From assembly GCA_038874435.1 (NCBI GenBank), contig JAVZCK010000006.1:37332-101331 (forward strand): a stretch of DNA of 64,000 bases, written 5' to 3'. Of this stretch, positions 7,089 to 12,154 are shown one piece after another (the stretch's first letter is position 1; each line of letters opens with the position of its first letter). A model generated the notes under the pieces. It was not told the DNA's origin, did no database searches, and worked only from the letters and a program-made list of their open reading frames with translations. The DNA comes from Thermoplasmata archaeon. Lineage in GTDB: Archaea > Thermoplasmatota > Thermoplasmata > Lutacidiplasmatales > SKW197. The position numbers were made by a program, and so were the translations under genes.

Positions 7089-7922
7089 TTATTTCTTCTT
7101 TTTCTCTTTCTTTGGTTTTGATGTTTGGGTTATATGATTAGGACAGTTTGTGTTCAACGGGACTTCAAGAACTTCGAACACGTTCCTATACCCATCGTAG
7201 TAAATCAAGTTGTAAGGCAATGCATCATACTCTTTTGAGATTATCTTTATCCCACAGAGGACCTGAAGAGCAGAAATTACCGCGGTAGTTGTGATTTCTG
7301 CAGGCAATTTCGGAGAATAAATCGTCACATCCTCTCTGCCTGAACATGAGAAGATTTGCTCAAGGTTCTTGAAATGGGTTTTGTTCATCCCGCATTCGAT
7401 ACAAGCAGTTTTTGGAGGGAGTACCACCTGGACTTTGCCTGATGTACCTAGGGTACCTCCATCTACAAGTGGAATCCCATAATAATAAGCATGAGAATTA
7501 ATGTATAGCCGTGCCATGATATTGTCTAAGCATCCAAATATAATATCAAACTCCTTGAGAAAATTCTCAGGCAGTTCCTGAATTGGCTTAGAATACCAAG
7601 AAACACGAACTGTTTTATCCAGTTTCTTCAATTCTCTTGCAAGCACTTCTGCCTTCAGCAGCCCTTTCTCAGCATCCTCAATTCTAAAGAGGGCACATCT
7701 GCTTAAATTGGATTTCACAATTTTGTCCATGTCTACTATCGCAATATTCTTGAAACCGGAAAGTACTAGATTTTTTCCTACCTCATTGCCAAGGGCACCC
7801 GCACCAACAACAAGTACCTTACTCTTCTGAATTAAGTTGAATTTTATCCACGGAATCCTCTTCTCTCTATCAAACATGTCTTCGTCGTGCATTCCGACCT
7901 TCAACACTTTATCTGCCGTCAT
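7089..7922 (-). CDS. E1-like ubiquitin/Ubl-activating enzyme (ThiF/MoeB/HesA family adenylyltransferase)
   Basis: Rossmann nucleotide-binding '[23 protein letters not shown]', '[15 protein letters not shown]' (E1 Arg-finger/NLxRQ-like), catalytic Asp region 'FGCLDN', and a Zn-binding Cys cluster 'CIECGMNK...SCSG...NCPNH'. The start ATG lies 1 nt after the JAMM gene's TAA stop. Lys-rich C-terminal tail. Confidence 0.8.
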   Translation of the reverse strand: [277 protein letters not shown]

Positions 7923-7923
7923 C

Positions 7924-11071: not shown

Positions 11072-11086
11072 ATCTGATTCCCCCTC

Positions 11087-12154
11087 TCAACATCCGCCTT
11101 CTGGGTCAGGTATAAGCTCCATTAAGTCCCCGTCTCTTATATCTGCTTCCTCCACCTTGGTCTCACCACGAAGTATGCGCTTTCCCTTGCGGAGCACATA
11201 CACACCAATGTTCTTTTCCCAGTAGGTTCCCACACTTTCTATGATCTCGTCTATTGTGTTGTCCGGCTCAAGTTCCATGTCCAGCGAAGCACCTGTCTCA
11301 GCATCACGCACTTTCACTCTTATCGACATTTCTTCCACCACCTTTTTCTTTTTTACAGTTTCTTCTTTTTCTGCCTCACTTGAAAGTAATCGGAATTTTT
11401 GCATGATGAGTTCAAAACTCTCTTTTTTTGTCTCTTCAGATTCCACAAGTTCTTCCTCCTCTTCCTCCTCACCTTTGGGTTCACTTATTCCGGCTTTTTT
11501 ATAATCTATAACCTCCAGGTATTGTTTCAATGTCTCAATTTCCTTCTTGCTCAGGACAATCGGTGAAACATGGACAATGAACACACCATTGTTCACTGAA
11601 ACCATGTCAACTACACCTTTCACAAAATCAATCACCTTTTCAAAACCGTTGGCTGTTATGAGAAGTCCGATTGCATCCAGAATGATTGCTGGTTTTGAAT
11701 TGTTTTTAACAAATTCACCGATGATGTAAGTCATCTCAAACTCCAATCGCTGCGGGTCCAAGGTCTTTTCCTTGGTCAATGTTGATGTAAGCCAGTATAT
11801 TTCCTCAATGTTTACATTGTACCTCTTTCTAATCTTTCTAGGATTGCTTTTTGTGAGACATAATCCTGCAAATCCAGCATCTAGTAAGTCCTTGAACAAC
11901 CTATAGGCAAGATTTTCATCCTCTGCGATGTAACTTCCACCCGTCTCCAAAAAGCTTGTGGGTTTCGAGGAAGCAAATCTAGCACCACAGTGAGGACAGA
12001 CTTCATCTAGTTCTCCAACCTCTCCGTTGCATTTGGGGCAGAGAAACACCTCTTCAAATAGTTCCTTTCCGCAAGAGGGACAAATAGTAGAGTCCTTTGG
12101 AATATTTTTACCGCAATAAGGACACTTCGTGGTTTCTGAAGTTTCGGGTGTCAT
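11087..12154 (-). CDS. double zinc-ribbon + DUF835-like domain protein with C-terminal ubiquitin-like beta-grasp domain ending Gly-Gly-Cys
   Basis: N-terminus 'CPYCG..x10..CPSCG..x10..CPKCN..x10..CPHCG' (four CxxC pairs). The middle domain resembles the C-terminal domain of the 20651-21820 protein. The last 80 aa 'MSIRVKVRDAETGASLDMELEPDNTIDEIIESVG...RILRGETKVEEADIRDGDLMELIPDPEGGC' parallel ubiquitin (MQIFVKT...VEPSDTIENVKAKI...LRLRGG) and terminate in GG followed by a single Cys. Confidence 0.75.
   Translation of the reverse strand: MTPETSETTKCPYCGKNIPKDSTICPSCGKELFEEVFLCPKCNGEVGELDEVCPHCGARFASSKPTSFLETGGSYIAEDENLAYRLFKDLLDAGFAGLCLTKSNPRKIRKRYNVNIEEIYWLTSTLTKEKTLDPQRLEFEMTYIIGEFVKNNSKPAIILDAIGLLITANGFEKVIDFVKGVVDMVSVNNGVFIVHVSPIVLSKKEIETLKQYLEVIDYKKAGISEPKGEEEEEEELVESEETKKESFELIMQKFRLLSSEAEKEETVKKKKVVEEMSIRVKVRDAETGASLDMELEPDNTIDEIIESVGTYWEKNIGVYVLRKGKRILRGETKVEEADIRDGDLMELIPDPEGGC

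Follow-up and report, generated by a model that had tools for sequence, protein, structure and literature searches.

A 64-kb stretch of DNA from an uncultured Thermoplasmata archaeon, here called the window, carries four tightly coupled genes on its minus strand at positions 7089-12154. In transcription order these encode a ubiquitin-like (Ubl) protein fused to other domains, a UBC-type E2, a JAMM protease and a minimal E1. We consider it likely, with a probability of roughly 75%, that this locus is a working ubiquitin-type protein-conjugation module with a tethered Ubl, operating through the cycle proposed below. Its gene content, folds, catalytic motifs, coupling signals, family-wide synteny and purifying selection are direct observations. 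Eukaryote-like ubiquitylation is already known in prokaryotes; new are the tethered Ubl, a deubiquitinase (DUB) on a predicted coiled coil and a probable nested cistron for free Ubl. A first-pass annotation of the window had read the locus as a eukaryote-type E1-E2 cascade, and this reading stands, with an HPN-type E2, a ubiquitin-type Ubl, a UBA-like E1 and an Rpn11-type JAMM. The four open reading frames (ORFs) that it had placed on the minus strand at 11087-12154, 10529-11071, 7924-10563 and 7089-7922 lie at those positions, and the motifs it had quoted for all four proteins are present on direct reading.

The modifier, its enzymes and their operon

The first gene (gene 1; 11087-12154, minus strand, as are all features of the operon given below) encodes a 355-residue protein of ~39 kDa. 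By Pfam and AlphaFold2 (AF2), two zinc ribbons, a DUF835 (inactive KaiC) domain and a disordered linker precede a C-terminal Ubl that ends in Gly-Gly-Cys. The Ubl domain (aa 276-355, 11090-11329) reads MSIRVKV...ELIPDPEGG-C, with Gly353-Gly354 at 11093-11098 and, as had been noted earlier, a single cysteine behind them (Cys355, 11090-11092). These 80 residues model as a beta-grasp (AF2 pLDDT 90.1 and pTM 0.76, from a 41-sequence alignment), the fold on which the earlier reading depended. The top Foldseek match of the model is Caldiarchaeum ubiquitin (6fnn_C, TMq 0.86, 24% identity), followed by Hub1, SUMO, ubiquitin and NEDD8, and the full-length model agrees. The claim that this segment follows ubiquitin closely thus holds for the fold but not for the sequence: BLASTP against human ubiquitin aligned 29 residues, 11 of them identical (E=3e-4), the Pfam ubiquitin profile scored 14 bits, below its threshold, and the C-terminus had just a weak Pfam match to a beta-grasp family (YukD, E=0.004). 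Low E-values to polyubiquitin chains were discounted, since they arise from the repeats.

Among the homologues of this Ubl, mean column identity is 75% and ELIPDPEGG is invariant in the aligned families A2 and A3. The residues after the invariant GG vary family-wide (none, C, I, N, H, Q, R, IREGE or LGWQNLYLL), being C, I, IREGE or LGWQNLYLL in the clade of fused Ubls to which the window belongs. Variable tails behind an invariant GG fit a propeptide that is trimmed, and the Caldiarchaeum JAMM has been shown experimentally both to trim pro-ubiquitin and to deconjugate (PMC5654768). One homologue (P0123, 249 aa) is a direct Ubl-GG-E2 fusion, so that cleavage after GG would be required to release both parts.

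The second gene (10529-11071, GTG start) encodes a 180-residue protein assigned to the UBC-type E2s by Pfam and by comparison with solved structures in the PDB. The motifs YPYQKP, HPN (aa 89-91, 10799-10807), VCTKL with Cys102 (10766-10768) and NPNPGNPL can be read in it, and in a sample of 16 family sequences HPN, Cys102 and Trp109 do not vary. The Pfam UQ_con profile, which the first-pass annotation had named as a check, matches with 51.3 bits (cutoff 27), and the best solved relatives are UBE2A/Rad6, UBE2N and UBE2T (E-values down to 2e-12, for UBE2A). The E2 tail PKIVGG (10556-10573) and the JAMM N-terminus PKIVGE (10516-10533) have in common a short motif, [P/R][KR][IV][IVL]G, followed by charged residues. 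It recurs across the family: of 76 JAB N-termini, 48 fit a strict regular expression, and most E2 tails read RIRI[VI]GD or KP[KR]I[VI]G. The motif may serve to dock a partner that both proteins share, for example the E1 or the Ubl, as a strand resembling a SUMO-interacting motif. A family homologue of 230 aa (P0084) is an E2 with a C-terminal zinc ribbon, and zinc ribbons thus recur on three components of the system: the Ubl fusion, the JAMM and the E2.

The third gene encodes a JAMM of the Rpn11/CSN5 type by Pfam JAB and PDB matches, of 874 aa when read from the ATG at 10548 (7924-10548); the ORF reaches to a TTG at 10563 (879 aa). Its MPN core (~10051-10395) contains the complete JAMM motif that had been reported, E...HSHPGHTCFLSSTD (HSHPGHTCFLSSTD at 10093-10134), which follows the pattern E...HxHx7Sx2D and could be read directly. 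Pfam JAB (PF01398) scores 52.3 bits (cutoff 22.5), and among solved structures the protein is closest to Rpn11 (1.2e-13), the Caldiarchaeum Rpn11 homologue (5e-13) and CSN5. A zinc ribbon (9784-9837) and a coiled-coil region (7927-9768) follow. The C-terminal 609 aa show heptad periodicity (z=9.5 versus shuffles) and contain 4 prolines; they are predicted to form a coiled coil up to ~90 nm long. The strand composition at 8001-10000 is extreme (GC skew -0.37, AT skew -0.37) because the coiled coil has purine-rich Glu and Lys codons on the minus strand, and the same composition yields several long spurious plus-strand ORFs.

The last gene (7089-7922) encodes a minimal E1 of 277 aa with no ubiquitin-fold domain (UFD). 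The GAGALG motif (7788-7805) and the CxxC zinc site, reading CIEC (Cys174/Cys177, 7392-7403), are present as had been described, together with a second zinc half-site (Cys260/His263, 7134-7145) and Cys193 in FSCSG (7338-7352). Pfam ThiF matches with 174 bits. In the PDB, UBA1 (1.3e-30), UBA3 (3e-27) and SAE2, together spanning 1e-30 to 1e-23, come before ThiF (6.6e-13) and MoeB (3e-12), and the match to the eukaryotic enzymes is to their active adenylation domains. The strand leading into the zinc site (TACIEC) aligns almost identically with that of UBA3. After it, UBA3 has a catalytic-cysteine domain of ~83 residues, whereas the window's E1 has a 25-residue crossover loop that carries Cys193, and the protein ends 14 residues past the second half-site (CPNH, aa 260-263), where UBA3 continues well beyond. 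Across 56 E1 homologues Cys174, Cys177, Cys193, Cys260 and His263 are 98-100% conserved (Cys193, 98%).

A short, ThiF-sized E1 with a CxxC zinc site could also belong to a sulfur-carrier or sampylation-type system of the CysO/QbsE or SAMP-UbaA-HvJAMM1 kind, in which the apparent E2 would be incidental; such systems likewise combine, in archaea, a beta-grasp modifier, a ThiF-fold E1 and a JAMM protease. NCBIfam matches in this direction are far below their cutoffs, for UbaA 8e-20 (71 bits, cutoff 450) and for desampylase 1.8e-6 (28 bits, cutoff 130). SAMP systems have no E2, and SAMPs are ThiS/MoaD-like and double as sulfur carriers, whereas here an E2 with HPN and catalytic cysteine stands between Ubl and JAMM and is conserved family-wide. 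The nearest structures of the Ubl are of the ubiquitin family, ThiS and MoaD are not among the 50 Foldseek matches listed, and no Pfam ThiS or MoaD match was found in 41 Ubl family members. UBA1/UBA3 are ~17 orders of magnitude nearer to the E1 than ThiF/MoeB are. The E1 also lacks a rhodanese domain, the JAMM belongs with Rpn11 and CSN5, and no sulfur, molybdenum cofactor or thiamine genes are adjacent. We therefore regard this explanation as effectively excluded, with a very small chance of being right.

The junctions between the four genes are tight. The Ubl TGA is followed by a 15-nt spacer, GAGGGGGAATCAGAT, and the GTG start of the E2, as the first-pass annotation had it, and the JAMM TAA lies 1 nt before the E1 ATG, again as described, with GGGAGGT just upstream of the E1 start. 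The 35-nt overlap that had been given for E2 and JAMM needs correction, as it presumes the first in-frame TTG (10563). The JAMM start is probably the ATG at 10548, since it has GGAGGAG 6 nt upstream and agrees with the gene calls in relatives, and the overlap is then 20 nt. Upstream of gene 1, a promoter and leader block (12155-12207) reads GCGTTAG, TTATATAT and then AGGTG (12164-12168) 9 nt before the first ATG. TTATATAT, at 12193-12200 and 39-46 nt before that ATG, is the TATA-like box that had been placed about 40 nt upstream. This block of ~53 nt (GCGTTAG-TTATATAT...AGAAGG) is nearly invariant in four species (the window, L012, L026 and L011), although identity between their loci is only 75-81% and the gene upstream is a different one in L026. 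It is a genuine phylogenetic footprint. Elsewhere in the window no further copy of the Ubl, E2, E1 or JAB was found, and tRNA and Rfam scans of it found no RNA genes.

From these elements we propose the following cycle. The conserved TATA promoter would give a polycistronic mRNA from which the four genes are translated in a coupled manner. The Ubl would be made as a GG-Cys precursor from which the Rpn11-like JAMM removes Cys355, the same enzyme later reversing conjugation. The E1, a UBA3-like adenylation domain that is presumably a homodimer, would adenylate Gly354 and probably form a thioester on Cys193 of the crossover loop. The Ubl would then pass to Cys102 of the E2 and on to target lysines with no dedicated RING E3; bacterial Bil systems likewise function without an E3 (PMC10557695). 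A minimal four-protein system with such an unusually small E1 would be suited to reconstitution.

Several points weigh against this proposal. All function is deduced from sequence, structure prediction and comparative genomics, and this applies to each of the enzymatic steps, to the targets, to the lack of an E3, to the use of the internal start discussed below and to the roles of the N-terminal module and the coiled coil. In the alignment to UBA3 the E1 has neither a UFD nor a separate cysteine domain, and Cys193 as the thioester-forming catalytic residue is a candidate by assumption. The UBC fold of the E2 is assigned from sequence matches. For an E3, none of the four proteins had a RING Pfam match above E=0.25, and a RING/U-box regular expression run over window ORFs of at least 40 aa found nothing, though this is a crude test and the gene for an E3 could lie elsewhere. 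For the full-length gene 1 protein the AF2 model is only moderate (pLDDT 70.5). Finally, the full-length fusion may escape conjugation altogether if all functional Ubl comes from the internal start.

A Thermoplasmatota family and its fused clade

In a scan of one genome per species, the E2 family was found in 193 species-level genomes, essentially all of them Thermoplasmatota. Its homologues form >100 clusters, of which the named ones are Thermoplasmata or Thermoplasmatota metagenome-assembled genomes (MAGs); with one such MAG, SKW197, the window is collinear over ~12 kb at 80% nucleotide identity. The statement in the first-pass annotation that prokaryotic E1-E2 cascades are known only from a handful of archaeal lineages is thus outdated, the more so as bacterial Bil and Bub systems are known. 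Synteny was counted in 90 fetched loci, with phmmer matches to the E2 in every one of them, to the Ubl in 85, to the JAB in 82 and to the E1 in 62. The order E1-Ubl-E2-JAB occurs in 48/90 loci, Ubl-E2-JAB in 23 and Ubl-E2-JAB-E1, the order of the window, in 7; Ubl-E2 adjacency is near-universal, and no RING gene was found in the conserved core of the family loci. A typical member has a free Ubl of 62-87 aa, mostly ending exactly in ...LIPDPEGG, a JAB protein of 200-220 aa and the E1 as first gene. In three loci of other Thermoplasmatota (L004-L006, the context of E2 P0099), a 62-aa Ubl and an E2 occur with a HAD hydrolase and, ~2 kb away, a 335-aa E1; they have no JAB in the fetched flank and adjoin a gene of >1900 aa. 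Their Ubl ends exactly at GG, so trimming would not be needed there.

The Ubl family appears in public sources only as 'hypothetical protein' or with no name. In the literature that could be searched, we found only passing mentions of a Thermoplasmata ubiquitin system: a 'Ca. Thermoplasmatota E2' clade appears in a tree of E2 and UEV proteins (bioRxiv 10.1101/2023.07.25.550441), and surveys of MAGs for eukaryotic signature proteins touch on it. Both reviews and primary papers on ubiquitin in archaea are concerned with Aigarchaeota, Asgard archaea and a few other groups. As the debate on the origin of eukaryotic ubiquitylation centers on Aigarchaeota and Asgard archaea, a Thermoplasmatota system widens the archaeal base of E2-dependent conjugation.

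The fused architecture is found in eight of the fetched loci (L007-9/L026, L011, L012, L027 and L047), representing about five species besides the window. In all of them gene 1 consists of two zinc ribbons, DUF835, a variable acidic linker and Ubl-GG with a tail, and the JAB carries a coiled-coil-like extension of 400-610 aa, long also in the distant members L027 and L047; the zinc ribbon behind the JAB is confined to the window's subgroup. The E1 is the last gene in the window, L007-9/L026, L012, L027 and L047, while L011 ends before the E1 gene. The window's four proteins are orthologous to those of the wider family; its Ubl has all invariant residues including ELIPDPEGG, its E2 has HPN and the cysteine, and the Ubl lies directly upstream of the E2. 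Its clade differs from typical family members in the Ubl fusion, the tail after GG, the coiled-coil JAB and the terminal E1. In neighbor-joining trees of E2, E1, JAB and Ubl the fusion loci form an exclusive monophyletic group, which indicates one origin and co-evolution of the four genes.

Sequence conservation within the clade follows the folded parts. Between the window and L012, L026, L027 and L047, respectively, identity is 100, 99, 68 and 71% for the Ubl, 99, 93, 45 and 47% for DUF835, 99, 97, 59 and 57% for the E2 core (57-59% for the E2s of the two distant members), 97, 92, 52 and 49% for the JAB, and 96, 89, 51 and 55% for the E1, compared with 89, 67, 26 and 25% for the linker and 87, 75, 18 and 20% for the coiled coil. 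The zinc ribbons of gene 1 are 38% identical in the distant members. The folded domains are thus constrained, with the Ubl the most conserved segment of all, and the linker and coiled coil, the least conserved, are not.

A search of 5.8 billion proteins recovered the full-length fusion in 5 clusters, all annotated 'DUF835 domain-containing protein', and among the best 150 matches of an exhaustive search of 1.84 billion proteins with the full fusion as query, which held many DUF835 architectures and free Ubls, there was no further DUF835-Ubl fusion. Public annotation of this kind, together with 'hypothetical protein', hides the system. Zinc ribbon-DUF835 and tandem-DUF835 proteins (P0186, P0204), as well as DUF835-coiled-coil-zinc ribbon proteins, occur with no Ubl, which suggests that a pre-existing module was captured.

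A tethered and a probable free form of the modifier

The N-terminal module of gene 1 begins with two CxxC...CxxC zinc ribbons (aa 11-28 and 39-56, 11987-12124; Pfam Zn_ribbon_3 1.4e-10, DZR 2.6e-7), followed by the DUF835 domain (aa 74-211, 11522-11935; 92.9 bits, 2e-26). The latter matches Pfam PF05763, has the KaiC/RecA-like fold and lacks a Walker A motif, the corresponding position reading YIAEDENLAY, in line with other members of the DUF835 family. In archaeal two-component systems, DUF835 is known to act as an output domain (PMC5847659). The acidic linker (aa 216-275, 11330-11509) is disordered in the AF2 model (pLDDT <50 for aa 217-275) and varies in length between fusion-clade genomes, always keeping the reading frame.

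Just where the linker meets the Ubl there is a candidate internal start (11327-11343): AGGTG (11339-11343), a 9-nt gap and an ATG (11327-11329, Met276), from which an 80-aa precursor of free Ubl would be made. In the window's group of genomes this is the same Shine-Dalgarno (SD) element, at the same spacing, as at the first start of the operon. L027 and L047 have their own SD and ATG, 9-12 codons before the Ubl core (GAGGAGGT, 10 nt and ATG in L027; GAGGTGG, 9 nt and ATG in L047). The Met276 column is not aligned in L027 at the protein level, the conservation of SD plus ATG being visible at the nucleotide level. All six fusion genes examined have such a signal immediately before the Ubl domain, and it is the only internal SD plus ATG common to them. 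In four close species no synonymous change is seen in the 21 nt ahead of the internal ATG, whereas the codons right behind it do have such changes. By comparison, an SD plus ATG of this kind is found in 1.6% of 20-codon coding windows taken at random from the same genome and in 0/58 windows of the coiled coil, a control of similar composition, and the chance of finding it in three independent lineages is roughly 4e-6. The predicted products, of 80-98 aa, are about the size of free Ubls elsewhere in the family. Because the signal is conserved in every fusion gene against this low background, gene 1 is probably the source of a free Ubl as well as a tethered one. Two further ATGs in gene 1 have AGGTG 8-11 nt upstream, Met184 (11603-11605), seen in the window only, and Met293 (11276-11278), seen also in L012; as neither is kept across the clade, both are probably due to chance.

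The same internal signal, present in six of six fusion genes, could mean that only the free Ubl from the internal start is conjugated and that the zinc ribbon-DUF835 part is a separate signaling protein, whose Ubl would be unused for ligation or would serve only as a non-conjugated domain in the manner of Rad23/Dsk2-type proteins. The role of DUF835 in two-component output and the existence of the Ubl-less architectures just described fit such an arrangement. However, the frame is open through a fast-evolving linker of variable length in every genome of the clade, with E2s down to ~57% identity, where a stop would be harmless if the fusion were irrelevant; this argues that the full-length fusion is also under selection. 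No second Ubl gene is present in the operon or the window, the four genes form an exclusive clade with its own gene order, which suggests co-adaptation, and engineered bait-ubiquitin fusions are efficiently charged. We thus think it unlikely that the fusion has little meaning.

With a tethered Ubl that takes part in conjugation, the whole 39-kDa fusion could be charged and ligated, most simply to partners of the zinc ribbon/DUF835 module, with proximity replacing an E3. A precedent is provided by UBAITs, C-terminal ubiquitin fusions that are charged by E1 and E2 and ligated to the binding partners of the bait (PMC7392334). In these constructs (O'Connor 2015, as described in PMC7392334), as proposed for the window's protein, a binding module stands N-terminal to a Ubl with free GG that is charged and ligated to lysines of the bound proteins; unlike the window's protein, UBAITs are artificial, and a natural counterpart that behaves like them is a hypothesis drawn by analogy. 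The KaiC-like domain and the coiled coil may instead, or in addition, serve for oligomerization, to which oligomerizing bacterial Ubls offer a parallel (PMC11601603), and the ~90-nm coiled coil of the JAMM would dimerize or scaffold the deconjugating activity.

Taken further, the fused clade might be a natural 'UBAIT', in which a zinc ribbon/inactive-KaiC module for recognition or oligomerization is covalently delivered, by way of its own C-terminal Ubl, to its binding partners. The modifier would then confer E3-like specificity on itself, with a free Ubl nested in the same gene, while the ~90-nm coiled-coil deubiquitinase would scaffold or measure assemblies. We put this forward tentatively, as an idea more doubtful than probable. 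If true, it would be a domain-grafting use that we did not find described for ubiquitylation in the literature, in a lineage outside Asgard and TACK. The fused variant offers testable ideas in any case: a modifier that carries its own targeting or oligomerizing module, one ORF for tethered and free ubiquitin, and a deubiquitinase on a long coiled coil.

Known systems and neighboring genes

A known archaeal counterpart is the operon of Caldiarchaeum subterraneum (Aigarchaeota), which encodes ubiquitin, an E1-like, an E2-like and a small RING finger protein, with an adjacent Rpn11 homologue (PMC3082918; reconstituted in PMC5654768). Both are operonic prokaryotic E1-E2 cascades with a beta-grasp Ubl precursor that has residues after GG and an adjacent Rpn11-type JAMM, and Caldiarchaeum proteins are among the closest solved relatives of the window's Ubl and JAMM. 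Unlike in Caldiarchaeum, no RING E3 was found in the operon or the window, and only four genes are conserved. The window's JAMM lies inside the operon, whereas that of Caldiarchaeum is divergently transcribed. The window's E1 ends right after its zinc site with no C-terminal Ubl/UFD domain; such an E1 domain, for E2 recruitment, is reported in some archaeal clusters (PMC5654768). The claim that the domain fusions set the window apart from the Caldiarchaeum-type operon is borne out, as the Ubl is fused to zinc ribbons and DUF835 and the JAMM to a long coiled coil, in a different phylum, Thermoplasmatota.

In layout the window resembles the anti-phage BilABCD ubiquitination systems (types I and II) of bacteria (PMC10557695), with which it has in common the order Ubl-E2-DUB-E1, the lack of a dedicated E3, a JAB-family DUB that pre-processes the Ubl, an E1 with no UFD and a ubiquitin/SUMO-like Ubl. 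Bacterial Bil and Bub Ubls can also have N-terminal parts, including coiled-coil (CC-Ubl1), DUF1508 (DUF1508-Ubl1) and disordered domains, N/G-rich tails and Ubl3 filaments (PMC11601603). As in the window, a single C-terminal beta-grasp then stands behind another, possibly oligomerizing, domain, and P0123 has its parallel there as a Ubl-E2 fusion. This raises the possibility of an antiviral or stress-defense system in which the Ubl is conjugated to proteins of an invader or to stress-exposed proteins instead of serving housekeeping regulation, for which the rare and patchy occurrence of the fused variant and a STAND-like gene ~1.9 kb downstream of the operon would also speak. That gene (2665-5238, minus strand) encodes a STAND-like AAA_16 ATPase with TPR repeats and a weak RPN7/PCI-like match.

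The proteins themselves argue otherwise. The Bil E2 is of the CEHH type and BilD has tandem IAD and AAD plus a helical CYS domain, whereas the window's E2 is of the HPN/UQ_con type and its E1 a single 277-aa domain. Zinc ribbons with an inactive KaiC/DUF835 domain are not among the Ubl partners described for Bil and Bub, and the window's system is archaeal, with a eukaryote-type E2 and a candidate internal start. PADLOC matches are weak (E2 E=0.013; JAB 5e-7, 27 bits), although PADLOC-DB 2.0.0 may predate dedicated Bil models, and of the Cap2 models the E1 matches no more than the generic adenylation part (1e-15). The family is widespread, occurring in its 193 species-level genomes beside varied, mostly housekeeping genes and not associated with CapH/CapP-type regulators, and a scan of viral contigs for the E2 family found no member. 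The distant fusion loci L027 and L047 have no flanking gene in common with the window. We therefore give a role in defense only a slim chance.

In the fetched parts of L027 and L047, no conserved neighbors were found beyond the four genes, and there were no homologues of the STAND-like ATPase or of the protein encoded at 5333-7078 (plus strand), a membrane-anchored beta-propeller and fn3 protein that is syntenic in L012 and L026. The gene immediately upstream of the operon on the same strand (12225-13511) encodes an Endonuclease Q homologue (8e-121 to PfuEndoQ; no Pfam match at E<=0.001). Synteny of this gene holds in L012 but is lost in L026, so that it lies outside the module, and, being absent around the distant fusion loci, the EndoQ, beta-propeller and STAND-like genes are taken not to be part of it.

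Farther away, the protein encoded at 540-2675 (plus strand) is secreted or membrane-bound and combines PPC pre-peptidase domains with TSP3 repeats and a transglutaminase-elicitor-like domain; it appears unrelated to the ubiquitin operon. At 31804-34110 (plus strand) the window encodes a 768-aa protein with many zinc ribbons, an HhH motif and C-terminal TPRs. Its zinc ribbons resemble those of the Ubl fusion (phmmer 8.5e-8), and a functional link to the ubiquitin system is possible.

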